Below, piece by piece: positions 34,837 to 54,845 of a stretch of DNA of 55,030 nt. The stretch is from a bacterium (GTDB lineage Bacteria > Patescibacteriota > Minisyncoccia > 1-14-0-10-42-19), in the NCBI GenBank assembly GCA_030690215.1, contig JAUYHD010000011.1, positions 1 through 55,030 on the forward strand, given 5' to 3'. A program made the position numbers and the translations under genes. The notes under the pieces were generated by a model. The model worked only from the letters and a program-made list of their open reading frames with translations, ran no database searches and was not told the origin of the DNA. Numbering within the stretch: position 1 is the first letter of the stretch; every line of letters starts with the position of its first letter.

Positions 34837-35301
34837 ATGGTTCATGTCCTAAGGACAATTCTAAGGCCGTTCAGACATTTAAGCGACATGATTAACAAAC
34901 TTCCATTATCAGGAAAGTTTTTTGTACGCCGCATTTTATTTTGGGCTTATACATCTACGCCGGATAGAAAGATGCGCAATACACTTCTTGCCCTACTTGT
35001 TCTCGTGGCGCTTATTTTTTTCCACAGCTCACAAATGGTTATGGGCTGGGATCTCTACAGTAAGACGTCTTTGGTTTTTGCCCAAATCGTCGGAATAACT
35101 TATGGGATTCTTAACGCTCTTGTTATTTACTCGCATTGTATTTTGTCAATAAGACTAGTGGGTATGGCTCGTAGGTCTTATCAACATTGCAGTTACAGAC
35201 GGCGCCAGACATCATTGCGTTCAACCACATATATGTTATTTTGTTTTGTGGTTACTCTTGGCGGACAAATTGTTTTTTTAACAACCTACTTTCGAATATA
35301 A
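34837..35301 (+). CDS. Hypothetical membrane protein
   Basis: AAGGAG SD, consensus promoter, three hydrophobic segments. Confidence 0.7.
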   Translation: MVHVLRTILRPFRHLSDMINKLPLSGKFFVRRILFWAYTSTPDRKMRNTLLALLVLVALIFFHSSQMVMGWDLYSKTSLVFAQIVGITYGILNALVIYSHCILSIRLVGMARRSYQHCSYRRRQTSLRSTTYMLFCFVVTLGGQIVFLTTYFRI

Positions 35302-35836
35302 ACTATCGAACATTCATGAAAAAGTTTTTATCAAGGTCCCTTGCATAATAATGCTTGGGACTTTTTATTTTATCTTATTAATTTTAACTTATTAATACTT
35401 TGTGAAAAATACCGAGGAATAAAAAACCCATCCGGCAAGAATCAAGTCCCGATATACCGATGATTTCGTAACCACCCTAGAGCGTCCATACCACCCGCAC
35501 GGGCTAGCCTACGCCTTCTTTCCCGACGGTTTGGTCGGGGCTCCGACTTCAATATTTTGAATTTATAACAGTGCGTCGGAGCTTAAGAGGGAGCAGTCCC
35601 GATCCAGCTTTCCATTGTAGATAATTACGTGAATAGCGGGATCGAGGATCCTCGATATTGCGTCCGCCCTGGAGGGCTCGTCCGCCGTCTCCGCCGGCTG
35701 GCGGAGACGGCGGATTGCGATTTGCAATCGCGCGAAGCGCGAGCAAATCGGGAAAACCTACGACCTTCTCCTTTCCGCCATAGGCGGATCAGCCTCTGGC
35801 TGAAAGGGGGGGATTTAACTTGAATTCAGTATTTCG

Positions 35837-35909
35837 TCCGCCCAGCAGGATTCGAACCTACGACCTTCTCCTTAAGAGGGAGCAGCTCTACCAACTGAGC
35901 TATGGGCGG
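35837..35909 (-). tRNA. tRNA-Lys(CTT), CCA not encoded
   Basis: CCGCCCA/TGGGCGG acceptor, AGCTCAGTTGGTAGAGC, CT-CTT-AA loop, GGTTCGAATCC. Confidence 0.88.
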
Positions 35910-35925
35910 ACGAAATATTGGATCA

Positions 35926-36171
35926 TCAATTATTTAACATTTCATCAAGATATTTTCTGCCGATGCCTGATTTCAAAAAATTTTCGCGTTTTCTCGCCTC
36001 TGTTTTATTATCACATCCTTCTTGATAAATTAATTCAAAGGGCCCATTTCTTTTGGTGAATTTACTCGCACCATAATTATGTTGCTTCAACCGCTCTTTA
36101 GGTAATAATTCTGTACTCCCAGTATAGCGCTTACCATTCCTTAAGCTTTTTAATACATAAACAAATGACAT
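35926..36171 (-). CDS. Stand-alone GIY-YIG nuclease
   Basis: FVYVLKS...RYTGST, ERLKQHN, EA-KRE-FLKSG-GR. Confidence 0.93.
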   Translation of the reverse strand: MSFVYVLKSLRNGKRYTGSTELLPKERLKQHNYGASKFTKRNGPFELIYQEGCDNKTEARKRENFLKSGIGRKYLDEMLNN

Positions 36172-36320
36172 ATGTAAAGAAAATATCTTCTCCTTTCCGC
36201 CATAGGCGGATCAGCCTCTGGCTGAAAGAGGGAGCTACTCTACCAACTGAGCTAAGGGCGGACGCAATATCGGGACTCTACTAATTCCGACGCTTAATTC
36301 GGGACTACTAGCGGAAAATA

Positions 36321-36668
36321 TCAATTCTGACTATTTATTAGCCCTAAAAGCATTTTGGATATTTCTTCGTATTTTTCATAAAAATATCTGAATCGCTTTT
36401 CATCTATTAACCTATCATCATAAATTAATTCCAACAATGACACGCATTCGTACACGGAACCGCGAGCTATAATATAAAATCTTTTTTTATCTGGCTTAGA
36501 AAACTTCCCGCTGCCCTCGGCAATATTAATAACGCTACTGATTGACGCTCGTTTTAGCTGATCTCTAATATAAGAATCTATTCTTTTTTCATACCTCAAA
36601 AATAGAATTATCTCTCTATTCAGAACTTTTGCCTTACTATATACGGTCAATTTTTCAAAATCAAACAT
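36321..36668 (-). CDS. Four-helix-bundle protein (23S rRNA IVP/Avd-like family)
   Basis: FEKL-VY, DQLKRASIS...NIAEG, F-IARGS-YEC. Confidence 0.92.
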   Translation of the reverse strand: MFDFEKLTVYSKAKVLNREIILFLRYEKRIDSYIRDQLKRASISSVINIAEGSGKFSKPDKKRFYIIARGSVYECVSLLELIYDDRLIDEKRFRYFYEKYEEISKMLLGLINSQN

Positions 36669-36802
36669 AAGATTGTAGTTTGTGTGAGTGTGAGTAGTTC
36701 GTAATTAGAAAAAATTTTCGCTTTCATTTAAGCGTTTTATGGTAACCCCAAATACTAATTACAAATTACTCATTACTCAAAATTTGAGCGTTAGCGAAAA
36801 TT

Positions 36803-37288
36803 TTACGTATGCCTATCGGCAAGCACGAACGCACCAAACGAGTACGGCTTTACCGCGGCTTCAAATCCGTATCCTTTCACCATGCCCACAACAGCATCTA
36901 TTAAATCACGCGTCGGGCCATTCTCGCCTACATCCAAATGAACCGTCAAATTATTGTTCCAAAAAAATTCTTCTCCAAGTTTATCCTTAAGGGCGCTTCG
37001 CAATTCCTGGGTAAATACAATTGACCGCATCGTCTCCTTAAAAATTCTGTCCTGAAGCGTCCCGCATTTTTCGGGCAAAGAACGCGACCAAAAATATCTC
37101 CCTCCATTCCCTATGCGGTGCACCCCCACCGCCGTCACAAAACATACTTCTTTTTCGGCGCGAGAGTCGCTCCCTACCACAATGTGATAGCGTACATCAG
37201 GTTTTTGGCGGATATACGAAACAAGCTCTTCTATGAGCCCATCAAAAGTAAAGCTTCCTACACTATTATGAAAATGTTGGTGAGTCAT
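36803..37288 (-). CDS. RNase H-like YkuK family protein
   Basis: VGSDS, HRIGNGGRYFW, VHLDVG-NG-T, KP-SFGA..ADRH. Confidence 0.88.
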   Translation of the reverse strand: MTHQHFHNSVGSFTFDGLIEELVSYIRQKPDVRYHIVVGSDSRAEKEVCFVTAVGVHRIGNGGRYFWSRSLPEKCGTLQDRIFKETMRSIVFTQELRSALKDKLGEEFFWNNNLTVHLDVGENGPTRDLIDAVVGMVKGYGFEAAVKPYSFGAFVLADRHT

Positions 37289-37289
37289 A

Positions 37290-37434
37290 CCCCGTTAGGC
37301 TAAATCGAAAAACGTCTTTCTTACAAAACCGCAGAAGATATTTCGATGTTTACCTTTGTTTGTACTTTTAATATTCATACTTTGTATTACCCCGCAAGAC
37401 GTAAAGGTTTTGCTTTCGATTTTGCCATACGGGG
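37290..37434. repeat. C-class hairpin element C1, 1 bp upstream of the YkuK start codon
   Basis: Flanks CATA/CATG; homologous to 49672-49816. Confidence 0.9.
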
Positions 37435-37446
37435 CATGTATTTCTA

Positions 37447-38259
37447 TTATAAAAGACTGCTCTGGACATCAGAGTGAAGCTGATATTCCTTGTCGGTACG
37501 ACGCGCGCGAAGAATTCTATCAAGCTTAAATATGCGATTCCCCTTGCGAAGGTGGCAATATCCCTCAATAGTTGCCGTATTCAATGTATATACGTCAACT
37601 AATCGGGTATTGAGCGAACCGCCTCCATGTTCAGGATTTTTTGTCACATAATCAATTTCAACGCTCCTTCTGGAATCAAACGCGTCTTTCAATACCTGGA
37701 ATACATTCCCCTGGAACTCTTCACCCCATCGCACAGGAATAGACACCTCGCCCAACGCGTCACGCGGAACGAACTTTATATGTCCCTGCTTTTTCCCATA
37801 TTCATATAATTCCTTTGTAACTTTTACATCTTGCACGCAATAATCTTTAACTTCCTGTATCCGTCCTTCGCGAAACCACTGGAGTGCTTGTAACCCGTCA
37901 GCGCTCTTTGAGATGCTCAATGTTGTCCGCGCCAGATTATCAAGCGACACGCGAAACCCTACTCCGCGTACTACATCATCCATCATATCAAGCATGGGAA
38001 CTTCTTGCAGATTAATAGATGTGTACGGCTGAAGCACGGGAATATCAAATCCTGTGATATTAAACCCAACCAACAAATCAGTACTGCGTATCATGTCTTC
38101 AAATTTCTGTAATTCGTGCTCCTCAAATACATGATACTTGTCATCATCCGATGTGTGAGCGGCAAGAACAGAAATACCGAGTTTATCCACAAAATCGCGA
38201 CCGCCGACTTCGGCAAATTCTTTTTTTGTTTCAATATCAAAAACGATAATATTTTTCAT
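37447..38259 (-). CDS. RNase_H_2 (YprB-like DEDD exonuclease) domain fused to C-terminal WYL domain
   Basis: VFDIET, GFN-GFD, YC-QDV; then VEIDY...GYCHLRK-NRIFKLDRI. Confidence 0.85.
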   Translation of the reverse strand: MKNIIVFDIETKKEFAEVGGRDFVDKLGISVLAAHTSDDDKYHVFEEHELQKFEDMIRSTDLLVGFNITGFDIPVLQPYTSINLQEVPMLDMMDDVVRGVGFRVSLDNLARTTLSISKSADGLQALQWFREGRIQEVKDYCVQDVKVTKELYEYGKKQGHIKFVPRDALGEVSIPVRWGEEFQGNVFQVLKDAFDSRRSVEIDYVTKNPEHGGGSLNTRLVDVYTLNTATIEGYCHLRKGNRIFKLDRILRARRTDKEYQLHSDVQSSLL

Positions 38260-38369
38260 TGGAAATGATTATAGCACAAAAAAAAATAATCACAACACCC
38301 ACATGTAAAGCGGTTATTCAAAAAGAAGGCCGTACGGCCTTCTCCCCGGCACGCGTCCCGGCAATGGCA

Positions 38370-38771
38370 TTAAAATGGAGCATCAATCGCAAATATACCC
38401 GCCCCCATTATGACTAACGAAAGCGCGATAATAAGCAGGGCAAGTTCAAATTCCCATCCGTTTACAAATCCCTTTTTGCGCGCAACTAATACAATCGCAA
38501 AAAACATATTAACCGCAAGCAAGAGTGCTACGGGCTGAACAAAAAGTCCGATAATAAGAAGAGCGCCCCCGAAAAATTCAAGAATACCTATCCAAAGAGT
38601 CCACGCTGTCGCGGGGCGAAGACCCAGACTTGCAAAAAATGCCTTAGTTTCCGAGAATTTCTTAAATAATTTTGGATATCCGTGAAGAATAAAAATAACA
38701 CCCAAAAAAACCCGCAGAATAAAGGGAACCGTAAACCAAAAATCAAATAATTGAGGAAATACGCTTGGCAT
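38370..38771 (-). CDS. DoxX family membrane protein
   Basis: LRVFLG-IF-LHG-PKL, EFFGG, GWEF, GAG-F-ID. Confidence 0.9.
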   Translation of the reverse strand: MPSVFPQLFDFWFTVPFILRVFLGVIFILHGYPKLFKKFSETKAFFASLGLRPATAWTLWIGILEFFGGALLIIGLFVQPVALLLAVNMFFAIVLVARKKGFVNGWEFELALLIIALSLVIMGAGIFAIDAPF

Positions 38772-38942
38772 ACTATTCTATTCCTACGAAATTACGAACC
38801 TCTACGAAAGTACGAAATAGAAATTAAATTTTTTCGTACTTTCGCGCTTTTTCGTATGTTCATAGGCTTTATCTTTTTCGTATTTTCGTACAGTTTCGTA
38901 TGTTCGTAGGAAATCTTGCCATACGAAGCATGTACATCTATA

Positions 38943-39614
38943 TTATACATGTTTTTGGAGCCATGCAATAATATCATCTTCCAGTTTTTGATATACGGAA
39001 AATAGATGAATGCCGTGCCCCCCCGTCTCAAAAATTTTTATATGTTTATTCTCTGAAGCAACTGCATCAAAAATTTCTTTGCCCATAACCGTAGCCGAGA
39101 TACCATTCCTTCGTATGTCATCTTTTGCCGCAATAATGTAAACATTTTGGTGCCCGGATACAGCACGCGCCGACGGAAGCGTTTGGATGCCATGATAATC
39201 AATACCCGCCGAAAGCATTACCGCTCCGTTTATTTCTTTCTCTTCCGCGAGAATCTGCAAAGCAACATTTGCCCCGATTGATGCCCCTACAACAAAAAGT
39301 GGAATATGGCTCTCATTTTTTTGAAATAAAAATCCCGCACGAGCATCTTCAATGCTTTTTTTTGTTTCATCTTCCGAAAATGACCGATATCCATCGGGAC
39401 CGCCATCCGATTCACCATGTCCCCGAAAATCAATCGCAAGAACCCCAAATCCCTTGCTCTGCAGTTTTTTTGCAAAGCCATCCCATGATTCTTTCGTTTC
39501 GGGCAGCATATGCAAAAGCAAAACGGCGGGACTTCCCTTTTCCCATTTATAATGAGTGCCGATAATAGCTACACCGTCTTTCGTTTTTAATTCTATGCGT
39601 TCTTGCATCTGCAT
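38943..39614 (-). CDS. Alpha/beta hydrolase
   Basis: LLLH, DFRGHGES, GASIG, GHG. Confidence 0.9.
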   Translation of the reverse strand: MQMQERIELKTKDGVAIIGTHYKWEKGSPAVLLLHMLPETKESWDGFAKKLQSKGFGVLAIDFRGHGESDGGPDGYRSFSEDETKKSIEDARAGFLFQKNESHIPLFVVGASIGANVALQILAEEKEINGAVMLSAGIDYHGIQTLPSARAVSGHQNVYIIAAKDDIRRNGISATVMGKEIFDAVASENKHIKIFETGGHGIHLFSVYQKLEDDIIAWLQKHV

Positions 39615-39663
39615 ATATAATATGATACTATACCACTAACTATGTTTTAAAAGGAGAATATGA

Positions 39664-39960
39664 ATGGCGGAAAAGGCAGAAGAAAAAGATATACGCGCAT
39701 TTGATATGGCAAACGGACTTACCTACATAGGAGAATTTGAAAATCCTGGCAACGGAATTATGCCGAGCCTTAAAAATACCATAATAACAGAGACGCTTGT
39801 AACCACAAATTCAGAAAAAACCCTTGAAAACAAATATAGGGAGCTGTATGAATTATTTGGATTGGGACAAAAAAACTCGCTTGCTTCAAAAATGGTCCTG
39901 ATCACATTAAGTCAAGTAGTCGCAACCCATTTTTTACCAGGTGAACTAACGAAGAAATAA
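39664..39960 (+). CDS. Hypothetical protein
   Basis: AAGGAG SD, terminator AAAACCCGCAAGGGTTTTTT. Confidence 0.65.
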   Translation: MAEKAEEKDIRAFDMANGLTYIGEFENPGNGIMPSLKNTIITETLVTTNSEKTLENKYRELYELFGLGQKNSLASKMVLITLSQVVATHFLPGELTKK

Positions 39961-40276
39961 AACCCGCAAGGGTTTTTTTATTATCTGCCCGCGCTATTGC
40001 GCGATTTGTAGGCAACACACCCAGCACATACCTTGTAAGACATACTGACTCATTGGTTTGATGCCTATAAAATATACACAAGATTCAGCATGAGTATAAT
40101 TTCATTTCTCTAATTCCCTCCGAAGGAGGACAGGCGCGCTTGTCTGCCTTCGGCAGAAATAGGCGAATAGTTTATAAAATAGAAAATATGCCCAATGTAA
40201 TTACGTTATGTGCTTAGTGGAATAACCGTAAGGACCCCAATCAACGTGGATACTGTAGTGCAAGTAGTGCGGTTAT

Positions 40277-41569
40277 TCATTTTTTGGGACGATAATATTT
40301 TTTTCCTTTCAGCTCTTTCGGTAAATGCTCTTGGATCACTTTTGCGTCCTTTCCGCCAAAGGCGGATCCTCCTTTGGAGGGAAAATCATGGGCATATTTG
40401 TACCCTTTGCCATACCCCAATTCCTTCATCAAGTTAGTAGAAGCATTGCGCAAATGCAACGGTACAGGAAGGGCTCCTTTCTCTTTCGCATCTTTCCATG
40501 CTTCCATAAGACCCGCGTACGAAGCATTATCTTTTTTAGCAGACGCCAAATACGTAACGCCTTGCGCGAGATTGATTGCCGCTTCCGGCATCCCTACAAA
40601 TGAAACTGCCTGCATAACGGCAACCGCAACAGCAATTGCGGTCGGCTGGGCATTCCCTATATCTTCTGACGCAAATATAACCATACGCCGCGCGATAAAA
40701 CGGGGGTCTTCTCCTCCTTCAAGCATCCGCGTCATCCAATATAAAGCGGCATCCGGATCGGAATCGCGCATTGATTTTATAAAAGCGGAAATAAGAGCAT
40801 AATGCTCTTCTCCCTTCTTATCATATCGGATTGTTTTTTTCTGAAGCGCTTCTTCAATCATTGCGCCGGAAAGGGCTACGGAATCCTTTTTTTCTTGGGA
40901 CAACGCATGCTGTATCGCAAATTCAAGCGCGTTTAATGCTATACGCGCGTCTCCATCCGAAAAATGGACAAGCTTTTGCATTCCTTCTTCTGCAAGCAGA
41001 ATCTTTTTTCCCCCAAAGCCGCGTTTTTTGTCAGACAATGCGTTTTTGATTATTTTTTCCACATCTTTTTGAGCGAGGGATTCAAGGACCAATACAAGCG
41101 AGCGTGACAAAAGGGGGCTTACAAGCGCAAACGAAGGATTTTCGGTTGTGGCACCGACAAGAACGACTGTTCCCTTCTCTACATAGGGCAGAAATACATC
41201 CTGTTGCGTTTTATTAAAGCGATGAATTTCATCAACAAACAATATGGTGCGTTTTTGGTGATGCTTCAAACGGTTTTCCGCTTCCTGAATTACTTTACGC
41301 AATTCGGGAATGCCGGATACCGCGGCAGAGAACGGCTGAAAAAACGATTTTGATTTTTCCGCGATAATATGCGCGAGGGTAGTTTTTCCGGATCCGGGCG
41401 GCCCCCATAAAATAACAGACTGCACAGTATCATGTTCAATTGCTTCCCGAAGGGGCTTGCCCTTCCCCACTATTTTTTCATGCCCGAAAAAACCCGAAAA
41501 ATCCCGCGGACGCATGCGTTCGGCAAGGGGCATGATCTGTAACACTGTGTCATCAAACAAGTCTTTCAT
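40277..41569 (-). CDS. rarA: Replication-associated recombination protein A (MgsA/RarA)
   Basis: PLAERMRP, GPPGSGKTT, DEIHRFNK, ATTENP, ASEDIG, VPLHLRNA. Confidence 0.96.
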   Translation of the reverse strand: MKDLFDDTVLQIMPLAERMRPRDFSGFFGHEKIVGKGKPLREAIEHDTVQSVILWGPPGSGKTTLAHIIAEKSKSFFQPFSAAVSGIPELRKVIQEAENRLKHHQKRTILFVDEIHRFNKTQQDVFLPYVEKGTVVLVGATTENPSFALVSPLLSRSLVLVLESLAQKDVEKIIKNALSDKKRGFGGKKILLAEEGMQKLVHFSDGDARIALNALEFAIQHALSQEKKDSVALSGAMIEEALQKKTIRYDKKGEEHYALISAFIKSMRDSDPDAALYWMTRMLEGGEDPRFIARRMVIFASEDIGNAQPTAIAVAVAVMQAVSFVGMPEAAINLAQGVTYLASAKKDNASYAGLMEAWKDAKEKGALPVPLHLRNASTNLMKELGYGKGYKYAHDFPSKGGSAFGGKDAKVIQEHLPKELKGKKYYRPKK

Positions 41570-41634
41570 AATAAAAAACACACCCACTCTATCAAAGAAG
41601 CGCCGTTAAGAAGACACGGACACACATCCTGTGT

Positions 41635-42201
41635 CTATTGTTCTTTCAAAAGATAATGATGAAGCACTTTATACTCGGCACCCCCAAATCCCAAAATTGA
41701 CTGCATAATAACTACGGAAGAAGCAGTCCCAAAAAAATGAACACCCTCATCTAATTCCTGCACAGAAAACGACGCAAACGCTTCGGGCTGGAAGCGCGCG
41801 AGCGTCACATGAAGCTCAAAGGGCCGCCGTTCCGGATGAAAATTAACATTTGCGTTTTTTAGTATTCTCTCCATTTGTTCTCCCAATTCTTGCATCACGG
41901 GAGGCATTGGCCCCTCAATCCAAATGAGCCGAGGCGCGTGTGCTGTCGGCCCAAATTGTACGCGTGTAAGCTCTATTTCAAACGAAATAGTATTGCTGAT
42001 AGTCGGCAAAAGAAGTCCTTTTAAAAAATCTATGTGGTGTTCTTCTACAGACCACGGGGGAATAAGCGTGATATGAAGATCATGCGGCTCAGTCCAACGG
42101 ACAGGAATATTTGTTCGCTTTTTAAATTCTTTTTCCCACCCGACTACCTTGCTTTGAAGCACGTCATCTAGCGGAAACGCAAAAAAAATTCTCTTGCTCA
42201 T
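41635..42201 (-). CDS. thpR: RNA 2',3'-cyclic phosphodiesterase (2H family)
   Basis: LHITL and HVTLAR 2H motifs. Confidence 0.88.
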   Translation of the reverse strand: MSKRIFFAFPLDDVLQSKVVGWEKEFKKRTNIPVRWTEPHDLHITLIPPWSVEEHHIDFLKGLLLPTISNTISFEIELTRVQFGPTAHAPRLIWIEGPMPPVMQELGEQMERILKNANVNFHPERRPFELHVTLARFQPEAFASFSVQELDEGVHFFGTASSVVIMQSILGFGGAEYKVLHHYLLKEQ

Positions 42202-42277
42202 TATATATAGAATATCACATCCGGACCCAATTAAAAATTCCCTGCTTATTTTGAATAAGCAGGGAATATATTTATTT

Positions 42278-43789
42278 TTATTTTAAATAATATAGATGAA
42301 TAATTGAAGTAGCTCTGCGATTGAGCAACTCCCCTATGCGTGAAAAAGTAAACCCAAATGTATCCCGCAATTCTTCCACTATGCACTTACGAACATAAAG
42401 CACCTCACTGCTTCTGTCAGCGCTCAAAAGTTTTTCTTTAGAAACGGCATATTTCTTTACAATAGAATCTAAAAGCGCATTGTCATTTGCATGAAGGATA
42501 CCCGGAAAAAAATTCCGTTCCATAAGTTTCTTGCGAAGTTCCTTTGGAGGACCCCAGGAATTAAAAAAAGAGTCGATCTTTTTTGTGGGCGCACTTGCTT
42601 TCAAAAAAGCTAGCATGATTGCAACTTGTCTTGCATAATAAAAATCATTTTTAGTTGCATATTCTTCTTTGCGTCTACGCCTTGTGATATCCTTGGATGC
42701 AACACTAAACGCTTCTGCGGTTTTCTCAACAATATAATTAAGAGACGCACCACCAGGCAATGAATCATACAATTCTTTAAAAATAACGCACGTGCGATCC
42801 CATTGCATCACGCCCTCAGATGCAGAAAAATCCTGGAGACCATCTACAAAACACTTTGCCCTCTCCCAAAGTTCATGTGTGCGCAATTTTTCTTTTATTT
42901 TCTCAAGATCTTTTTGAGCTTTTGCAAGAGAACAACTCAATCTCACGCTTATTTCTTGGAAGGTATGCTCTTTTGTATTACCCAAGCCATAATATAGGGT
43001 AAGAATTTTACGCTCCCCATTAGTAAGAAGCGCGTCACGAAGAACTTTATGTACAAACGCTTGCAAGTCACTCTCACTCGCAACGTCTTCCTGCGACACC
43101 CTTTCGTCAACGACATAATCAACTAAAACGCCTTCGTCGTCTTCAGAAATAGCACGGCTTGCATCAAGAGAAATCTTTTCGCGCCAAAATTCTTCTGTGA
43201 AAAGCACCCAACGAACTATATTAAAAGGTTTGTCCATTTCCTTCGCGATTGCTTCAACTGTAACATCCCCTTCTTCACTTTTAATCTTATAAACAACTTT
43301 TCTTAACTTGCTTATAGCTGCCATCATACGAGTAGATATTTCTAAACTACCGCTTATAGCATCATACATTTCTTTTCTAACCCACCATCCAGCATACATC
43401 ACAAAACGACCGTCTAGATTATAATCATAGCTTGTAACAGCTTTTGTAAGACCGATCATTCCTTCTTGTATCAAATCAGGCTCATCAAGCACTGGGTTTT
43501 CAAATAAATTATAAGAAAAAGCAAAACTACGCGCGTATTTATGAACAAGTCCTTTATACTTAAGGATAATCTTATTCCTTAAACGTATTCGTTCTTTTGG
43601 GTCTGACGCTTTTCTATATTTCTCAAAAAGCAACAAATCATCGGGGCGATAACAGAACAAATCTTTAAGTTCTTTGCATGAAAGTTTTTTAGATGTTTTA
43701 GAGGGCACTGATCTATTTCCGGTTACCCAATCAATCTCTTCTCGAACAGTAAAACTACTTTCGGCAGAAAGCGTATTAATATTATTCAT
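42278..43789 (-). CDS. Sigma-70 family factor fused to two DnaA C-terminal-like HTH domains
   Basis: DLIQEG-IGL-KAV-YD...F-YA-WW, ISLD, LYYGL...TFQEI; then ARQVAIML and FSRIGELLNR-TSIIH. Confidence 0.75.
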   Translation of the reverse strand: MNNINTLSAESSFTVREEIDWVTGNRSVPSKTSKKLSCKELKDLFCYRPDDLLLFEKYRKASDPKERIRLRNKIILKYKGLVHKYARSFAFSYNLFENPVLDEPDLIQEGMIGLTKAVTSYDYNLDGRFVMYAGWWVRKEMYDAISGSLEISTRMMAAISKLRKVVYKIKSEEGDVTVEAIAKEMDKPFNIVRWVLFTEEFWREKISLDASRAISEDDEGVLVDYVVDERVSQEDVASESDLQAFVHKVLRDALLTNGERKILTLYYGLGNTKEHTFQEISVRLSCSLAKAQKDLEKIKEKLRTHELWERAKCFVDGLQDFSASEGVMQWDRTCVIFKELYDSLPGGASLNYIVEKTAEAFSVASKDITRRRRKEEYATKNDFYYARQVAIMLAFLKASAPTKKIDSFFNSWGPPKELRKKLMERNFFPGILHANDNALLDSIVKKYAVSKEKLLSADRSSEVLYVRKCIVEELRDTFGFTFSRIGELLNRRATSIIHLYYLK

Positions 43790-43900
43790 AGAATCCTCCT
43801 TATCAAAAAACTAACAAATCTAAAAAAAATGTAACATATCTTTTTCTAAAAATCAAGCCCCCATCTTGACATTTTATGAAAATGCATTATTATATCCTTG

Positions 43901-44728
43901 GATATGTTTTTCTGAATGATCGCCCAGCTCCAGTTTTGTAACAGAAATTTGTAGAGGAAATGCACCATCTTTTGTAAACGGTTCCAATGATACAGATGTT
44001 AGTTACAAAACTGGGGCTGGGAGGAAAGTCCGAACACTCCCCCTCACATGAAAAAGCATACTTATTTTTAAAATTCAATCGATACTTCAGACAATAAGAC
44101 CCATGATGGTATCAAAAAAGACTCAAAAACATATAAGCACAAGCTTATAATGCTTTTTCATGTGAGGGGAACAAGGTAGCGTCCCATATCCCGCTCATAG
44201 CGGGATCAAGGATCCCGGCATCTTATAATTCATAAATAGAGGTCGGGAGGTAACACCCGTCGTGCGCAAGCATAGTGGTGCGAGCAGAAACGTCCCGATT
44301 CGAAAGAATCGCGGAGGACCCACATCCCAAGCTAGATGGTCCACCTTCACCATAGGGACAACAAAGTGAAGATGAAACGGCTAAATCCATACCCGAGTGC
44401 AAGGCCGTACTTTCGATGCTTCGCATCGAACGCAGAACTACGCAGAATAAACGCAGAACAACGCGGAAATTTTCCGCGAGGGTCTGCGTCACGTCTGCGC
44501 AAGTCCGCGCTCGACGCGGAGCGTCGAGAGAGTGCCGCAAGATCCCGATAGCAATGTCGGGACCAGATAAATGATCATTGCCAATTTTGTTTGCTGCAAG
44601 CAAACACAAAATTGAGCTCCCGAGCAAGGTCGAGGGACTCTTCGACTACGCTCAGAGTACTCGATTTTGTAATTTCGCTTCGCTCAAACAAAATCGGTAC
44701 AGAATTCGGCTTATAGGAATAATATATC
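43901..44728 (+). ncRNA. rnpB: RNase P RNA, expanded to ~830 nt
   Basis: GAGGAAAGTCC (44021), GGTAACAC, GATGAAACGG, GCAAG, AGATAAATGATC, ACAGAATTCGGCTTA (~44699); upstream TTGACA promoter, downstream terminator 44737-44762. Confidence 0.88.
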
Positions 44729-44774
44729 CAAAACACAAAAATCCCGGCTTTCCGGGATTTTTGTTCACACATAA

Positions 44775-47093
44775 TCAATTAGAATCGCCCTCGGACGTTA
44801 TTTTTTCGGGAAACGTACGAGCTGTTTCAGAATCAATGTCTATCTCGCATACTCCGCCGACACACGCAAGCTCTTTTGCGCCAGCCGTGTTATCTTCTTT
44901 TTCGTACGCAACAATCTGAGAAAAATCAACCTGCGGCATACGCGCGGTTAATTCATTATATTTTTCTTCCGAAATTGCCTCATACGGCGCAAGCTGGTAG
45001 GCGTGATCTGACTTTGGAAGAAACGAAAGCCCTCCCAAAATACTCCACCGCTGATACAGCCAATTTGCAGTCTCAATCCATTCATCGCGCATAACCGAAA
45101 CCGTAACCGAAGGGTTGTGCTCGGTGAAATTCTTTTTTACCATTTCCCAATGTTTTAATTGCTCAATTGCGTTCAAATTGACAATTGCCTGCTCCGGCGC
45201 TTTTACCGGAAACTCCAGCACAAATGTCGTCGCAGAACTTGCGTCCTGCCCCACTTCGGAATGATATGGAAATTTTTGATCTTTCAGCATATGAAACAAC
45301 GGATCAGTCGCCGAAATCCGAACGCGGCGAATATAATATTTTGCGTGCCTCGTATGCATGCCGGAAGCCGCATCAACAAGCTGGGATACCGTGCCCGACG
45401 GTTTTACGCATGTAACACATGTGGATGCATTGATTCCAAACCGACGCGCATATTCTTCGTTCGTACGCACCGCGACTTCTTTCATGCGCAGAAGCGTTTC
45501 GGGATTGCGCACTGCAGACGAATCCCATTGACCGGTAATTGAGACGCCAAGCAGCCGCTCTTCCTCGCAATTTTCTTTCCACTCTTTTGAAATAAACGGA
45601 AAATTCGTGAGCGATGACTGATATGTGCCCAACATTGAAGCAAGGCGGGTTTTCCGAACAAGCATTTCTTCTGTGTCTTCTGCTCGCGCGACAACTTCTG
45701 AAAGATTGCAGAACTGCTTTGAACGAAGCACTATTTCACCGCATGGATTCGTCCCGCATGTCCCGTGATGATGTTTAAATACTTTCCATCGGCGCGCGGG
45801 AAGCTGGTTTTTGAGGCTTCCTCGGTTAAAAATACCCCGCTCGCCTGTCCCTGATTGCGCAAGCGCGAGCCATTCCTGCATAAATTCGGTTGCCGTCGGC
45901 CGTTCGTTGTATACTGCGGAATTGTTTGCCATAGAACGCTGGGGTTCGGTGAGATAAAATTGCCCGGTTTTTGCATGGCGCATTTCTTTATCATCCAAAT
46001 CCGAAAGCGAAATTAAAGCGCTTCGCCGTACTCCCCCCATCACGACTACTTCCCCTGTTTTGCAAATAATATCGTGAATATCCAAATTTGAAAGACGGCG
46101 TCCTTGGCGCGAAAATATCTTTGAACGAGAAAAATCCAAAAGCGCTCGAAGCGGCTCCGGCCCCGAACTTCGCCCCCCCATAGTGGCAAGACGAGCCCCT
46201 GCGGGACGCAATGTTGAATAATCAAATGCGATGTCTTTACCCGAGTACCATGTTTTAAGTCCGAGCGTTAATGCTTCTGCCCATCCCTCTTTACTGTCGC
46301 CGACAATATGTGTCGGGAGCGTTGTTCCTATCTGACGTTTTACAATTGGAAGCTGTTGAACTGTCTGTGATTCAACGGAGTAACCGACACCCGTCCCGCA
46401 CATCAATAAATACATTATTTCTGCAAAATCTTCGAGCTTTGAAGGCGCAATGAAAGAACAATTGTAGGCGGCAACATTACTTTTCCGTGCCGCATGCCCA
46501 GCACTCCACAAAAGACGCATAGAGGGCATTACCTCTTGGCGCAACACAGCTTCGCGCAATTCGTTATATTCTTCGGATGTGAGCTTATCGCCAATATTCT
46601 CACGCATAAAATTGATATAGCGATCAACCGTCTCTATCCATGTTTCCCTTCTTCCCTCATCTTCAACCCAGCGAGAATATGTTCGGTAATAAATAAATTC
46701 TGAAAGAGGATTTCTAAAATATTTTTTGCTTTCTTGGGCAAACGCCTGGACATGATCCGGAATGACTTTCTTTTTTTCTCGGATATGCGCGCGCTCGCTT
46801 CGATATAAAATATACGCTTTTGCCGTTTTTGGAAAATCAAGAAGAATAAGACTTTCTTCAACCACGTCTTGAATCGCCTCAATAGAAGGTACCCCCCCGC
46901 GAGGATATTTCTCTGTTAATCGCTTGATTACGCGATCGGCAATAAGCAATGGATCGCGCCGCGTATCACCTTCGCCGCTTGCCTGCATGGCGCGGGATAC
47001 TGCGTTTACAATTCTGTTTTTATCAAAAGAAACTACTCGGCCATCGCGCTTTCGCACGGATTGGACCAAAAAAGACGATGCGTGTGACACCAT
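44775..47093 (-). CDS. nrdJ: Class II (B12-dependent) ribonucleotide reductase with N-terminal ATP cone
   Basis: VRKRDGR-V-FD, RTYSR, YNCSF, GGVRRSA, TNPCGEI, CNLSE, KPSGT, C-terminal C-GG-C. Confidence 0.92.
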   Translation of the reverse strand: MVSHASSFLVQSVRKRDGRVVSFDKNRIVNAVSRAMQASGEGDTRRDPLLIADRVIKRLTEKYPRGGVPSIEAIQDVVEESLILLDFPKTAKAYILYRSERAHIREKKKVIPDHVQAFAQESKKYFRNPLSEFIYYRTYSRWVEDEGRRETWIETVDRYINFMRENIGDKLTSEEYNELREAVLRQEVMPSMRLLWSAGHAARKSNVAAYNCSFIAPSKLEDFAEIMYLLMCGTGVGYSVESQTVQQLPIVKRQIGTTLPTHIVGDSKEGWAEALTLGLKTWYSGKDIAFDYSTLRPAGARLATMGGRSSGPEPLRALLDFSRSKIFSRQGRRLSNLDIHDIICKTGEVVVMGGVRRSALISLSDLDDKEMRHAKTGQFYLTEPQRSMANNSAVYNERPTATEFMQEWLALAQSGTGERGIFNRGSLKNQLPARRWKVFKHHHGTCGTNPCGEIVLRSKQFCNLSEVVARAEDTEEMLVRKTRLASMLGTYQSSLTNFPFISKEWKENCEEERLLGVSITGQWDSSAVRNPETLLRMKEVAVRTNEEYARRFGINASTCVTCVKPSGTVSQLVDAASGMHTRHAKYYIRRVRISATDPLFHMLKDQKFPYHSEVGQDASSATTFVLEFPVKAPEQAIVNLNAIEQLKHWEMVKKNFTEHNPSVTVSVMRDEWIETANWLYQRWSILGGLSFLPKSDHAYQLAPYEAISEEKYNELTARMPQVDFSQIVAYEKEDNTAGAKELACVGGVCEIDIDSETARTFPEKITSEGDSN

Positions 47094-47169
47094 AACATGT
47101 GAGATGGTTTATGAATGATAAAGAAATAAATTATTGGAAACGCAATGAAACGGTACGAGTCCGCGCGCA

Positions 47170-48309
47170 TTAATCTTTTCGAGAACGCCTGAGAAACGCG
47201 GGAATCGTATTCCAATCTTCCTTCTCTTCTATTGTATCATTTTTTCCGTTATCCTCTGCAAGTAAGTTTTCCACTACTGCCTTTGTCGCAACCTTCTTTT
47301 GGGCGAAAGCATGAGACCCCTTCCCCTCGGCAAAAAGGCTTTTTGAAATGCTTCCTTCGGGGAAGCCCGAAGCAATCACGGTAATTTTAATCTCGTTTTT
47401 CTTCAATCGTTCATCATGGATCGCGCCAAAAATGACGCGGGCATCCTTATCAATGGCATCTGTAATAATGCGCGCGGCTTCCTGGATCTCCCACATGGTC
47501 ATATCAGGCCCTCCGGCGATAGAGAAAAGAACGCCCCGAGCGCCATCAATTGACATATCCAACAATGGAGAATTAATCGCCTTATGGGCCGCTTCCTCTG
47601 CGCGCTTATCTCCCGTTGCAGTCCCGATGCCCATAAGCGCGGATCCGGCATTCTGCAAAATAGCGCGAACATCAGCAAAATCAACATTAATGATGCCGGG
47701 GAGCATAATCAAATCGGAAATTCCTTCTACCGCTTGACGCAACACCTCATCACACATCGCAAACGCCGAAAGAAATGTCGTTTCTTTTTCAATAGCAGTC
47801 AACAATCGGTCATTTGGAATAATAATCATTGCGTCTACCGAAGATCGTAATCGGTCAATGCCTGCTTCTGAAATTCGGGAACGCTCCGCGCCCTCAAAAC
47901 CAAATGGCCGCGTTACAACCCCAACGGTAAGAGCGCCTTGCGCGCGAGCGGCTTCAGCAACGACGGGACTCGCGCCAGTCCCCGTGCCTCCCCCCATACC
48001 ACAGGTAACAAAAACCATATCAGCGCCTTTAAGCGATTCTTGAATCTCATCACGCGTTTCTTCGGCGGCTTGCCGTCCGACTTCCGGATCCATTCCCGCC
48101 CCAAGTCCCTTTGTAAGATTTTTTCCTATATGAATTTTTTTGGATGCTTGAGAATTATGAAGATCTTGCGTATCGGTATTTACAACGACAAAATCAACAC
48201 CCTTTACCTTGGAGTGTATCATGTGATCAACCGCATTTGACCCCGACCCACCGGTGCCAACTACTTTAATGCGGGCAAATGCTTCAATGTCTGGTTTTAT
48301 GTTTGCCAT
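47170..48309 (-). CDS. ftsZ: Cell division protein FtsZ
   Basis: [23 protein letters not shown]. Confidence 0.99.
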
Positions 48310-48497
48310 ACTACAAGAGAGAAACCAATATAACGCATCCTCATAATAAATAAAAAAAATACCCGTTTCAAGGATATTATTACAAGAACATAGAGCAATG
48401 AAAAAATCCAGCCCCCCTCACATATCTCTCGCGATGAGGGATAGATGGCATGAAAAAAAATTCATCCACGGCTATTGCTCTCAGTAAAACGAGCCTC

Positions 48498-49670
48498 CTA
48501 GGGCAGAAAAGCTTTAAACCAGCGCCACAAAAGCGAACCCCCTTTTTCAGAAATGCCTGCAAAAATACCGCGCTTGTTTCTTTCCTCTGATTCATACGCC
48601 AGCAAACAAAGCCCTGTCACTGCCGCAAAGCGCGGGTCAAACTCTTCTGCAAGACCCGATTCTTCTATCGTACGCGCGACTTCAACGGGTAATCGAAGCG
48701 CGCTCCGTCCCATTGTTTCAATATTGAACAAATGCGCCCCTCCGCCCGCAAGCACAACACCTCCCGGCAAAAGACCATCCCTATTAATTTTCTTTAAATG
48801 AGCGCCGACAGATTCAAATATGTCCCCCACGCGCGCGGCAATAATTTCTTCAATCTGTTTTTTATTTGAACCGCGAAACTGCCTATATTCTTGCTTTTGG
48901 CGTTCTGCCTCATCAAGCCCGATACGAAGACCGATTGCGATATCGTGGGTAATCGCTTGCGCGCCGATAGGAAATGCTTTGACCGATACCGGCAAGCCCT
49001 CTTCAAAGATCGCCGAACTTACGGTCCCCGCACCAATATCAAGCGTCATCACGCCAACTTCTTTTTTGTGGTTAGAAAGAATGGCGCGCGAAACAGCCAA
49101 AGGAGAAGCAACAACATCATCTACCGCTACTCCCACGCGCTCGGCGCACGCCGCAATGTGTTCTACGTGCTGGGACAGAGCCGTGATAAATATTGTTTCT
49201 GCTTCAAGGCGAGAGCCGGTAATGCCTACGGGGTTTCGGGTTACCAAATCTTTATCAACCCGAAATAAAAGCGGAAACCGATGAAGAATTTCCTTGTTAT
49301 GATGAGGAACAATGCTTGCGTAGCTCGCGTCTAACACCCGGCTCACATCGCGCTCGCTGATATCTCCTCCATTTGCGTATGGCAACACAATAGACCCGCG
49401 CGCTATCACCGAATCCAAGCTTGTCCCCCCATACGAAAAAAAGGCAGATGAAACCTTCACTCCTGCCATTTTTGTCGCTTGAAAAAGAGATTTTTTAAGC
49501 TGTAATGCTACCGCATCAACGTCTATAATGTCTCCTCGCCTAACGCCTTCGGATCGTACATCGCCAACACCCCGAATCTGCATGCGTCCTGTTGCGTCAT
49601 CCCACTCTGTAATCATCGTTTGGATGCTTGAAACTCCGATATCAATTCCTGTAGCAATGTGACGAGTCAT
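48498..49670 (-). CDS. ftsA: Cell division protein FtsA
   Basis: GIDIG, DIGAGT, ITHDIA, AE-K, GGVVLAGGG, amphipathic C-tail; adjacent to ftsZ. Confidence 0.93.
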   Translation of the reverse strand: MTRHIATGIDIGVSSIQTMITEWDDATGRMQIRGVGDVRSEGVRRGDIIDVDAVALQLKKSLFQATKMAGVKVSSAFFSYGGTSLDSVIARGSIVLPYANGGDISERDVSRVLDASYASIVPHHNKEILHRFPLLFRVDKDLVTRNPVGITGSRLEAETIFITALSQHVEHIAACAERVGVAVDDVVASPLAVSRAILSNHKKEVGVMTLDIGAGTVSSAIFEEGLPVSVKAFPIGAQAITHDIAIGLRIGLDEAERQKQEYRQFRGSNKKQIEEIIAARVGDIFESVGAHLKKINRDGLLPGGVVLAGGGAHLFNIETMGRSALRLPVEVARTIEESGLAEEFDPRFAAVTGLCLLAYESEERNKRGIFAGISEKGGSLLWRWFKAFLP

Positions 49671-49671
49671 A

Positions 49672-49816
49672 CCCCGTTAGGCTACATCGAAAAACGTCTT
49701 CCTTGCAAAACCGCAGAATATATTTCGATGTTCACCCTTTATTGTACTTTTACTAATAATACTTTATGTTACCCCGTAAGACGTAAAGGTTTTGCTTTCG
49801 ATGTTGCCATACGGGG
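49672..49816. repeat. C-class hairpin element C2, 1 bp upstream of the ftsA start codon, flanked by CATA
   Basis: Homologous to 37290-37434. Confidence 0.92.
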
Positions 49817-50010
49817 CATACATTCAGTATACCGTGCGCCAGAAGAATTTTGCAAAGTGCGCTGTTCTTAAAACGAGCGCCTTTAACATAATAGCGCAAG
49901 TTCAAAGTTCAAAACTCCCGCCAACAGCGACTCGCTTCGCCAAAGCTTGAGCGAGGCGAGGGCTCGCCCTGGGCGGCAAAAGTCAAAACTATATACACAA
50001 TTAATAATTA

Positions 50011-50478
50011 CTACCTTTGCGTTTTACGCTTTGGTTTTAAACTTTTAATTTTGCGCTTTGAGCTGATGTTTTTGTAAAAACGATCAAAAAATTTTTCTTC
50101 CTCCCGTCTCATTCGCTTTTCTTCTTTGACGCTCTGATGGTCGTATCCCTTCAAATGCAGAAGCCCATGGATATAGAGATATAAAAGACGCGCGTGGAAT
50201 GATTGCTTATACCGCTTTGCTTCTTTTTGTATCTGATCCTTGCCCAAAAGAATCTCTCCCGAATTTTTATCAAGCAGAAAAGAAAGGACGTTCAACGCAT
50301 GACGCGGCCCAAAACGATATTTTTTCCCCCTGCGTAATACGCGCCGAACACGGCGCATCTCATATTCCGAAACCAACGCGATACTCACATGGAAACGCTC
50401 CCCTATGATATGTTTTTTGACGGCTCTCCACGGCAACAAACGGTGTCTTTTTGCCGCGACGTTGAGTTCAATCGCCAT
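50011..50478 (-). CDS. ybeY: rRNA maturation endoribonuclease YbeY
   Basis: NVLSF, GEI, HGLLHLKGYDH. Confidence 0.92.
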   Translation of the reverse strand: MAIELNVAAKRHRLLPWRAVKKHIIGERFHVSIALVSEYEMRRVRRVLRRGKKYRFGPRHALNVLSFLLDKNSGEILLGKDQIQKEAKRYKQSFHARLLYLYIHGLLHLKGYDHQSVKEEKRMRREEEKFFDRFYKNISSKRKIKSLKPKRKTQR

Positions 50479-50944
50479 CGTTTTTTTCTTGGGAGGCAAG
50501 ATGGCTTCGCACCATCTCCGAGACCCGATCTCCGGACGCTTTTCCTTTCAGCACCGGCATAATTGCTTTCATAACATTGCTAAAATCAGCCATGCTTTTT
50601 GCATTCGCTTCGCGTATCCCCTCTTCTATCCGGGACTGCAATTCTTCATCGGACATTTCCGGAGGAAGATAAGAGGAAAGAATAGAAAGTTCTTTTGATT
50701 CTTTTTCTGCAAGGTCTGCCCGCCCTCCCTTTTGGAAACTTTCAATGGAATCCTTGCGTTTTTTCGCCTCGCCCTGCAATACCTCTATCACTTCCTCGTC
50801 AGAAAGCCCTACGTCTTTTTTTCGCAATTCAATTTCTTTATTTGTAATCGCGGAAGAAAGCATGCGTAACGCAGAAAGACGCGCCTCGTTTTTTTCTCGC
50901 AAGGCACTTTTTACGTCATCATGAATAGATTGTTTCAAACTCAT
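50468..50944 (-). CDS. GatB/YqeY domain protein
   Basis: KKRKDSIE-F-KGGR-DLA-KE, YLP. Confidence 0.92.
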   Translation of the reverse strand: MSLKQSIHDDVKSALREKNEARLSALRMLSSAITNKEIELRKKDVGLSDEEVIEVLQGEAKKRKDSIESFQKGGRADLAEKESKELSILSSYLPPEMSDEELQSRIEEGIREANAKSMADFSNVMKAIMPVLKGKASGDRVSEMVRSHLASQEKNDGD

Positions 50945-50988
50945 AGATATACAGGCACAATGGCGCTATATCGAGACGCTTGATACCG

Positions 50989-51243
50989 TTATCGTGTCCG
51001 TGTCTTCTTTTTTAACTTCCCTATCTTACGAAGATATGTGGACTCTTTGAGGCGCGCCATGCGGCGAAGCGCGGACTGTTTTCTCTTTTTGTGCGACAAT
51101 GGACGCGAACGAAATTGGTTTGAACGAGTTTTACGCACGATGCCCGCCTGTTGCGCTTTTTTTGAAAAACGGCGAACAAGCGCCCCGGGTGTTTCATTTT
51201 GGCGCCTCTTTACTTCTATAATTGTCGCGTTTTTTGTGCTCAT
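50989..51243 (-). CDS. rpsU: 30S ribosomal protein S21
   Basis: EVKRRQNE...LVRRFSKK...GIV; upstream of yqeY. Confidence 0.8.
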   Translation of the reverse strand: MSTKNATIIEVKRRQNETPGALVRRFSKKAQQAGIVRKTRSNQFRSRPLSHKKRKQSALRRMARLKESTYLRKIGKLKKKTRTR

Positions 51244-51607
51244 GCCAAAAATTAAGGATTACCGCTTTTCACTAATAATTACTTTATATTATAGCCGAGC
51301 GGGATGACTATAATTTTTGAGCACCCCCTCCTTTTAGACGCTATCAGCACTTCGACTGATTCGCTTGCGGAGACGCCCCCATGAACTTTTGAACTTTTTT
51401 AATTGCCGTTCCCTATCCCGCGCGTCCTTCTCGTTTTGATATGCTTCATACTATACGATGCCTCTTATATCTTTTTCTCTTGTATGCGTTTTTGCTCGCG
51501 CGCGCAAATCTTTGGTATATCCCGTATATAAATCCCCATTGGGCAGTTTTGCAAGATATACATAATACATAGCGCTCAAAAGGAGGGGGTGGAGGTTCTG
51601 CCGCCAC

Positions 51608-54024: not shown

Positions 54025-54056
54025 ATTATATGACAGTCTACCGAAAGACAAAATTC

Positions 54057-54644: not shown

Positions 54645-54654
54645 ATACTATAGC

Positions 54655-54845
54655 TAAAAACTCAAATCTAAAAACTCAAAACCAAAACGCAAAGCGTAAA
54701 ACCGAATTGAAACATCGTTGTATAAGTTTTGGGTTTTAGCACTGCGGTTTTCCCTCCGAAGGAAAATTCGCCTTCGGAGGAAACTTTTGAGTTTTGAGTT
54801 TTGAGTTTTGACTTTTGAGTTTTGAGTTTTGAGTTTTGAGTTTGT
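54655..54845 (+). pseudogene. Internally deleted, inverted copy of the four-helix-bundle unit with (TTTTGAG)n tail
   Basis: 54661-54708 is the exact reverse complement of 53963-54010; reads NSNLKTQNQNAKRKTELKHRC then decays. Confidence 0.7.

Follow-up and report, generated by a model that had tools for sequence, protein, structure and literature searches.

Which kind of DNA are the two 145-nt repeats that lie between the promoter and the start codon of ftsA and of a ykuK-type gene in the window (the whole 55,030-nt stretch of DNA analysed here), and how could these two genes be expressed from behind them? The window belongs to the genome of an ultra-small bacterium, denoted G000 below, and a second genome of the same genus, denoted G002, was used for comparison. 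We consider it likely that the repeats are miniatures, of the type known as MITEs (miniature inverted-repeat transposable elements), of a 299-bp cassette encoding a GIY-YIG nuclease, that the family enters in one orientation at the transcription-start ATG of leaderless-type genes, and, less surely, that expression of the host gene is kept via the borrowed promoter and AUG. The identity of the element and its landing site are well supported.

The two copies and their host genes

The initial annotation of this DNA had placed both copies exactly at the start codons of apparently leaderless genes. The observation was confirmed as a whole and the sequence facts given with it were correct. The two copies form a 161-nt direct repeat of 89% identity. 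The elements, their host genes and the associated upstream open reading frames (ORFs) and promoter boxes are as follows.

37290..37434, minus strand: copy 1 of the C-type miniature, 145 nt long with termini CCCCGT...ACGGGG; separates the promoter of an RNaseH-like (ykuK-type) gene from its ATG
49672..49816, minus strand: copy 2 of the C-type miniature, 145 nt long; separates the promoter of ftsA from its ATG
36803..37288, minus strand: host gene 1, RNaseH-like protein (ykuK type) of 161 aa; Pfam RNaseH_like PF04308, E 1.2e-42; ATG at 37286-37288, 1 nt past the element
48498..49670, minus strand: host gene 2, ftsA, 390 aa; Pfam FtsA PF14450 and SHS2_FTSA, E 1.3e-19 and 4.1e-13; ATG at 49668-49670, 1 nt past the element
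37435..37437, minus strand: distal start-codon copy of the ykuK-type gene; first codon of a 16-codon upstream ORF
49817..49819, minus strand: distal ftsA start-codon copy, at the expected transcription start
37387..37437, minus strand: upstream ORF of copy 1, 16 codons and TAA, over the 5' arm of the hairpin; stop at nt 49 counted from the distal ATG
49769..49819, minus strand: upstream ORF of copy 2, 16 codons and TAA, over the 5' arm of the hairpin
37446..37451, minus strand: -10 box TATAAT, 8 nt before the distal ATG; shares bases with the stop codon of the RNase_H_2/WYL gene that lies upstream (37447-38259)
49826..49855, minus strand: ftsA promoter TTGCAA, 18 nt, TATACT; the box at 49826-49831 ends 6 nt before the distal ATG

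The ftsA gene at 48498-49670 is the sole strong FtsA match in G000. The identical left flank reported for both copies, in which CAT is the ATG of the gene, is GAGTCATA, present at 37282-37289 and 49664-49671 with CAT at 37286-37288 and 49668-49670. The ATG is duplicated at the far end, where a second CAT can be seen at 37435-37437 and 49817-49819; the first of these is probably the original start codon of the ykuK-type gene. The core from CCCCGT to ACGGGG measures 145 nt, and core and duplicated bases together come to 149 nt. This is no multiple of 3, and therefore the insert is out of frame, as had been claimed. A single T stands between the core and the host ATG, which puts the end of the hairpin 1 nt before the start codon.

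Beyond the distal ATGs we found the -10 boxes at the leaderless spacing that had been described, namely TATAAT, 8 nt, ATG for the ykuK-type gene and TATACT, 6 nt, ATG for ftsA. Judged by this spacing and by the lack of a Shine-Dalgarno sequence, both would be leaderless-type genes. The element termini match at 17 of 20 positions as inverted repeats. RNA folding of the two copy regions gave -48.1 and -58.4 kcal/mol, with z values of -3.5 and -3.2, respectively, and none of 200 shuffles was equally good.

Empty sites in related genomes

A check of relatives for the empty leaderless allele had been suggested in the initial annotation, and both sites are indeed empty in G002. The FtsA and ykuK-type proteins of G002 are 86% and 85% identical to those of G000, respectively, and no element is present at either gene. 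Upstream of ftsA, G002 reads TTGTCA, 18 nt, TATACT, 7 nt, ATG; upstream of the ykuK-type gene it reads TATAAT, 8 nt, ATG. Therefore, both genes had a leaderless-spaced -10 box before insertion, and an ATG was left on each side of the element. The empty alleles, with 7-8 nt between -10 box and ATG, bear out the claim that the insertions lie exactly at the start codons of leaderless-type genes.

The orthologous sites were empty in G002 for all 7 of the G000 loci examined, that is the window pair and five more. At 4 of the five further sites G002 has a -10-like hexamer 5-7 nt before the ATG; at the fifth, in an S6-like gene, TATACT stands only 3 nt before the ATG. A DNA search for C copies gave none in G002 and one in the genome G001. 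In G001 the copy is found at the first codon of a gene that probably encodes ribosomal protein S6. G000 has a C copy at the same codon, which now carries a nested insertion, and G002 has none. The presence of a copy at the same codon in both G000 and G001 implies that the element has been tolerated long-term before such a gene.

The parent cassette

Three intact 299-bp cassettes with the termini of the miniatures were found in G000 (C18:55560-55858, C8:50490-50788 and C5:6-304), and two more are cut by contig ends. The cassette is a single end-to-end ORF that starts at the promoter-side ATG and encodes a 98-aa GIY-YIG protein (Pfam PF01541, E 2.5e-17, residues 11-80). Pfam showed no extra DNA-binding domain in this protein and NCBIfam gave no match above its cut-offs; among solved structures, the UPF0213 proteins 1zg2 and 1ywl come nearest. 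The stop codon TAA of the nuclease is inside the gene-side inverted repeat and is followed by CGGGGT and the host ATG, in frame, with 6 nt from stop to ATG. As read from its layout, the cassette would leave no room for a promoter, a ribosome-binding site or a terminator of its own. The inverted repeats flank and overlap the ORF, recur in the miniatures, and pair with each other, not as two separate hairpins.

The 145-nt copies thus resemble MITEs in being short and multi-copy with terminal inverted repeats, in having a duplicated ATG (3-4 nt) and empty sites, and in having a coding parent with the same ends. They depart from MITEs in that the parent has no recognised transposase (DDE, HUH/Y1); its sole ORF is that of the GIY-YIG nuclease. 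The reading of the 145-nt copies as non-autonomous MITE-like miniatures of the 299-bp cassette is well supported.

Landing sites in the genome of the window

The 145-nt window copies have about 20 relatives in G000, including tandem arrays in which adjoining units have one CAT in common. We built a catalogue of the C-type elements of G000 from BLAST and terminus searches, and it holds 24 loci. The gene-side flank was assessable at 20 loci, a count that leaves out loci cut by a contig end or having a truncated unit (C5:6-304, C6:5-586, C18:56763-57180 and C18:72462-72693). The promoter-side ATG was assessable at 16, leaving out loci without a distal end or a distal ATG (C16:1-137, C17:1-137, C26, C31, C18:16331, C15:13302, C18:54920 and C27:1262).

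The element abuts an ATG at 16 of the 20 assessable loci (TATG at 15 and TAATG at one), and at 13 of these 16 the abutted ATG opens an ORF of at least 100 aa. The initial annotation had named insertion of other C copies at unrelated contexts as an outcome that would speak against it. The ATG rule holds at the 16 loci and fails at the other four, which are described below with the points against our reading. Orientation relative to the host gene was identical in 15 of 15 C-type copies at ATGs (two-sided p 6e-5). A strong -10 box, defined as at least 5/6 matches to the consensus, stands 4-8 nt before the distal ATG in 9 of 16 cases. In the background, computed over the same spacing range as the census (3-10), the corresponding values are 5.1% for ATGs as a whole and 15.8% for crude gene starts. 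The enrichment at distal ATGs has P values of 2e-8 against all ATGs and 2.4e-4 against crude gene starts, and is 3.5-fold over gene starts.

In order to have a survivorship null, we assumed entry at any TATG and survival only outside coding sequence. Under this null 18% of sites fall at gene starts and the probability of at least 12 of 20 is 3.5e-5, with 13 of 20 seen. The start-codon pattern exceeds chance.

One claim of the initial annotation did not survive the census, namely that a TATGACTC-like sequence of 8 bp is the target. Of the flank, other copies repeat no more than (T)ATG. The bases after ATG vary among the copies (CCC, CAG, GAA, CAA, AAG, ACA, GCT and others), and we rejected the 8-bp consensus; the GAGT common to the window copies is a coincidence. 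The base before the ATG on the promoter side is T at 10, C at 4, G at 1 and A at 1 of the 16 loci, and on the gene side all TATG-flanked copies have T. For C16:17054, a C precedes the ATG at the empty site of G002; in G000 this C is retained in the distal copy, and the gene-side copy has T. Therefore, either 3 nt were duplicated by an element ending in T, or an element-borne TATG entered 3' of the host ATG. The shared target consists only of the ATG, mostly preceded by T or C, and the promoter context. As for the start context of G000 in general, which is usually TATG, T precedes the ATG in 441 of 891 crude gene starts (TATG), A in 207, C in 165 and G in 78.

The cassette in other lineages

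The same nuclease-cassette layout was seen at 5 of 5 loci from a single-protein scan of public genomes, including metagenome-assembled genomes labelled Saccharibacteria and Jorgensenbacteria. A profile search gave small GIY-YIG homologues in 244 of 301 genomes of the class, where the profile also matches cassettes of other kinds. We read the layout across lineages at the 29 best loci outside G000; two of the 29 gave no ATG and were set aside. The nuclease stop lies 2-33 nt before a host ATG that opens an ORF of at least 50 aa at 16 of the 29 loci, and inverted repeats (at least 10 of 14 matches) abut both ATGs at 11 of the 29. One of the 29 loci carries GTG on both sides.

Proposed mechanism and the role of the hairpin

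We propose that the parent cassette would be transcribed from the host promoter and that its nuclease would be translated from the borrowed 5'-terminal host AUG. As the layout suggests, a ribosome terminating at the nuclease TAA could re-start on the host AUG (coupling). Such a hand-over from an element ORF would be a fourth possibility next to the three named in the initial annotation (initiation permitted by the element, a promoter supplied by it, or its removal from the RNA). By analogy with the single-strand nucleases compared in the next section, the nuclease may recognise the stem of the two element ends in single-stranded DNA, with the whole element as the loop, and its cut beside the flanking triplet ATG would set the target.

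In the window, ftsA and the ykuK-type gene would still be transcribed from their old promoters. Ribosomes on the 5' AUG would run through the 16-codon ORF and prevent the 5' arm from pairing, which would free the host AUG for initiation independent of a Shine-Dalgarno sequence. In the modelled transcript from the distal A, the stem spans nt 1 to the base before the host AUG, and the host AUG has its A unpaired with a probability of 0.04 and its U with one of 0.15. With nt 1-51 held single-stranded, these two bases were unpaired with probability 0.99-1.0 in ftsA and 0.86-0.90 in the ykuK-type gene. A Shine-Dalgarno-like word was found at only about 9-14% of crude gene starts in G000, and therefore initiation on an unstructured AUG without such a word seems normal in this genome. 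That translation of the 16-codon ORF unmasks the host AUG is the reading we prefer for ftsA; it is also the weakest step of the model, and we regard it as somewhat less likely than not.

A 47-codon ORF running from the promoter-side start to the TAA of the parent is preserved in three independent 146-nt miniatures. These comprise four units: C6:23470, C15:13480 and the two members of a tandem pair, C18 56885/57035, which counts as one miniature. Their peptides differ at about 30% of positions. This small sample suggests that an open frame is kept and not a particular peptide. The element frame of the window copies ends at codon 17 after a 1-nt loss, and that of a 142-nt subfamily never reaches the TAA.

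The two arms of the element change jointly between subfamilies, with GCAAAACC/GGTTTTGC in place of TGTTTTAT/ATAAAACA and ACGTCTT/AAGACGT in place of CATCGTAC/GTACGATG. Since both arms change together, the hairpin appears to be under selection, as DNA or as RNA.

The paired blocks GCAAAACC/GGTTTTGC and ACGTCTT/AAGACGT were also seen to be in swapped order on the two arms, and both change in the 142-nt subfamily. In swapped order the pairings are incompatible in one simple hairpin, which therefore points to alternative or pseudoknot-like folds. The internal ACGGGG can also pair with the left terminus of the element.

Comparison to known systems

Correia/NEMIS elements of Neisseria are MITEs of about 100-150 bp with terminal inverted repeats, short duplicated flanks, many copies and a TA dinucleotide target. 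They lie between promoters and genes, form long RNA hairpins and have their ends in common with a coding parent. The elements described here are similar in size, inverted repeats, duplicated flanks, promoter-gene position, RNA hairpin and coding parent. They differ in that the parent has a GIY-YIG nuclease and no DDE transposase, in that the target is a start codon entered in fixed orientation, and in that the element keeps an ORF beginning on the host's own ATG.

IS200/IS605 and REP/RAYT elements move by single-strand 'peel and paste', with orientation-specific insertion by a short fixed sequence, DNA hairpins and gene-less derivatives. The fixed orientation beside a short constant sequence, the hairpins and the abundant gene-less copies are points of likeness. 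The invariant gene-side TATG and the variable promoter-side base fit either a 3-nt duplication or an element-borne TATG. An element-borne right-hand TATG entering 3' of a target ATG would copy IS200/IS605 logic and fits the invariant gene-side T. Unlike both IS200/IS605 and REP/RAYT, however, the family has no HUH/Y1 transposase, its inverted repeats are terminal and are not subterminal hairpins, and its nuclease is of another family.

Free-standing GIY-YIG homing genes such as the phage seg genes have a separate DNA-binding domain and one cognate site, and spread by homologous repair. The likeness is that of a selfish GIY-YIG gene located between genes without breaking them. In contrast to seg genes, the protein here has 98 aa, the sites are many and unrelated, and there are inverted repeats and miniature derivatives.

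Ssn nucleases, according to Chenal et al. (2025, Nat Commun, PMC11893778), on which all statements on Ssn in this paragraph are based, are GIY-YIG proteins with a single domain and 94 aa, and hairpin repeats stand on either side of them. They are site-specific single-strand DNA nucleases that cut a few nt upstream of a hairpin; the 3 nt upstream of the palindrome are what cleavage mostly depends on, and the hairpin loop is replaceable by long extensions. The repeat-gene-repeat layout is insertion-sequence-like according to the authors, and the article makes no mention of start codons (PMC11893778). In partial likeness to the NTS/SRM arrangement of Ssn, we found a single-domain GIY-YIG gene of about 95-100 aa bracketed by inverted stem-forming repeats, together with many gene-less copies. 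The triplet dependence and the loop tolerance of Ssn would fit an ATG-specific cut beside the stem of the element ends. In contrast, the element ends here pair with each other, whereas the Ssn repeats are self-contained 28-nt hairpins. Moreover, the ORF here fills the whole element including both repeats, and the sites are start codons with ATG on both sides. The NTS consensus had no matches in the window at up to 3 mismatches.

Compared to termination-reinitiation and to leaderless/70S initiation, on which there is a review (PMC9031893), a mobile element would here exploit both, between the 5' AUG and the coding sequence.

The mobile-element family appears to be undescribed in publications. 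In a literature search that covered titles and abstracts, none described a GIY-YIG inverted-repeat element or a MITE at start codons or leaderless genes. We tentatively suggest, as a possibility that we hold to be close to even, that the family may represent a new class of prokaryotic transposable element. Its sole protein would be a GIY-YIG single-strand nuclease of about 100 aa, and its integration would read an expression signal (the ATG at the transcription start, or the TTGA of the -35 box in sister families), leaving a copy on each side. Promoter, 5' AUG and ribosomes would be common with the host gene, which would make the element an expression parasite of leaderless translation and, at about 300 bp, the smallest autonomous mobile element known in bacteria.

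Points against the proposed reading and alternative explanations

Several findings weigh against targeted entry at the transcription-start ATG of leaderless-type genes and against the mechanism proposed for it. Four of the 20 loci are off an ATG: two have TGTG flanks, one, made up of two units, is at a gene's 3' end, and another is 12 nt upstream of an ATG. At three of the loci with an ATG the host ORFs are short (25, 37 and 61 aa), and some targets may not be real genes; the gene starts used throughout are crude ORF calls with no gene prediction. A strong -10 box is missing at 7 of the 16 distal ATGs, and among the 11 clearest loci of other lineages a -10 box at 5/6 or more was seen in only 3. 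The ATG of the ykuK-type gene is only 9 nt past the stop codon of the upstream gene, and judged by this arrangement the gene could be a coupled operon gene and not leaderless. In most miniatures, including both window copies, the frame stops short of the TAA, and therefore coupling cannot explain them. The minimum-energy single-stranded DNA fold of the 299-bp cassette leaves its ends unpaired with each other and pairs the left end with the internal ACGGGG instead. To our knowledge, GIY-YIG enzymes are hydrolytic nucleases with no strand-joining activity. Finally, a promoter or an entry site in the gene-side end of the element would account more easily for the tandem arrays and for the case in which a miniature is followed by a nuclease cassette (C8:50490-51143).

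This last point leads to the alternative that survives best, in which the gene-side end of the element is itself a promoter. The leaderless ftsA mRNA would then start inside the element and the hairpin would not be in the mRNA. Both window copies read TTGTAA or TTGCAA, 18 nt, TAGCCT, 8 nt, ATG on the gene strand, the spacing matches that of the ykuK-type host promoter, and the arrays as well as the cassette behind a miniature would be accounted for. However, TAGCCT matches TATAAT at only 3/6, and scanning the gene strand of both elements for the promoter consensus gave nothing. Neither the 142-nt subfamily nor the 299-bp parent has the TTGYAA box, C37:23513 has TTTCCT for TAGCCT, and in other lineages, with flanks read by eye, a TAnnnT at that position is inconsistent. 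We consider an internal promoter unlikely.

Another possibility is that of an untargeted MITE combined with selection, where entry is at any (T)ATG or at any site, harmless insertions survive, and the pattern is one of survivorship. The four loci elsewhere would be expected, and as G000 is about 80% coding (crude ORFs) and 441 of 891 gene starts read TATG, start codons would be the common harmless TATG. This null expects 18% of sites at starts where we saw 13 of 20, with the P value of 3.5e-5 given above. It is also at odds with the orientation fixed in 15 of 15 copies and with strong -10 boxes at 3.5 times the gene-start level, and gene-less copies, which need no expression, choose the same sites. 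Survivorship in place of targeting is thus improbable.

The RNA might also be processed, a double-strand-specific RNase, for instance, excising or trimming the hairpin so that the 5' end of the mRNA comes to lie at or near the host AUG. The transcript would contain a long stable stem that takes in, at its base, the nucleotides adjoining the host AUG, and Correia elements of Neisseria have been reported as RNase III substrates. However, when 35000-51000 was compared with Rfam, allowing E up to 1, neither element matched a family, be it a ribozyme or an intron. The length of 145 nt is far below the size of group I/II introns, and nothing positions a cut at the AUG. The initial annotation had listed removal from the RNA among its options; this option is without support because Rfam gave no match on the elements, and we rate RNA processing slightly below survivorship.

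Classical homing, where the nuclease cuts an allele without the element and homologous repair then copies the element in, is very improbable. GIY-YIG nucleases are typical homing endonucleases, and G000 has small GIY-YIG genes beside tRNA genes and, probably, inside a 16S rRNA gene. But at least 13 unrelated host genes have only the ATG and the promoter context in common, and therefore there is no flanking homology to copy from; moreover, Pfam shows no extra DNA-binding domain in the 98-aa protein.

Home-grown regulatory leaders (attenuator or thermosensor-like hairpins) in place of mobile DNA are scarcely credible: a structure kept by two-arm changes and a masked start codon would suit them, but the same sequence stands before unrelated genes with duplicated flanks, tandem arrays and nested insertions, its ends are common to the nuclease cassette, and its absence from 7 of 7 orthologous G002 sites already contradicts them, leaving only a secondary co-opted role.

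Implications

If MITE-like miniatures do enter at the start codons of leaderless-type genes as proposed, an essential division gene and a probable ribosomal protein gene would be expressed through a parasitic hairpin between promoter and first codon. The parent would show how little a mobile element may need: it would do without promoter, ribosome-binding site and terminator, with an ORF that runs from the host ATG to a stop just before the rebuilt ATG. A role as transposon engine would then be a candidate natural role for Ssn-type GIY-YIG nucleases, and the elements would be a natural system in which to study leaderless initiation, re-initiation and the masking of start codons, in bacteria mostly without Shine-Dalgarno sequences. 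Annotators of Candidate Phyla Radiation genomes may read repeats abutting ATGs as insertions, and short "hypothetical" ORFs beginning with MPR as element frames. The ATG-specific and TTGA-specific choice of sites could possibly be of use as a single-strand DNA tool.

Sister elements and neighbouring features

At 1541-1679 and 14916-15054 of the window, and at 14 further G000 loci, there are sister elements about 140 nt long that also have CCCCGT/ACGGGG as termini, with TTGA on both sides and a fixed orientation. Their gene-side TTGA is the start of a -35-like hexamer (TTGACT, TTGACA). A -10 box comes 16-18 nt further on in 9 of 16 cases, compared to 4.1% of all TTGA sites. The sister elements seem to land inside -35 boxes and to rebuild them, in parallel to the ATG rule. 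We also considered that the sister classes flanked by TCAA, TTGA or TAAA might sit on stop codons. This was rejected: in only 1 of 55 cases did the flank contain a stop codon belonging to an ORF of 50 aa or more, and the flanks proved to be -35-like TTGAC.

Some C/B-type miniatures carry a nested A-type element in their gene-side arm; the point of entry is the same CTTG each time, and CTTG stands on both sides. Such loci are C6:185-324, C8:50827-50966, C9:6246-6382 and C18:24218-24357 of G000, and 15214-15350 of the window. Either one event was copied as a composite, or the same site was struck repeatedly.

Other small GIY-YIG ORFs were seen in G000. The one at 35926-36171 of the window (minus strand; E 6.6e-22 to the profile) lies by a tRNA at 35837-35909 with partial tRNA duplicates and repeats (35765-35921 / 36187-36273). 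A similar arrangement was found at C20:7957-8205, and this cassette family differs from the start-codon one. At C6:52437-52721 a small GIY-YIG ORF stands directly before sequence resembling the conserved 515-530 region of 16S rRNA, and this nuclease gene is probably inserted in an rRNA gene. A truncated GIY-YIG ORF fragment (E 9e-5) is located at 51451-51570 of the window on the minus strand.

The window further contains GTTTTGA-like heptamer runs and a 65-nt inverted repeat pair 642 nt apart (12726-12782, 54785-54842, 50021-50064 and 53950-54721). Its segment 44327-44633 on the plus strand gave a weak full-model match to bacterial RNase P RNA class A (26 bits against a gathering score of 100, E 6e-5) and may be a divergent RNase P RNA.

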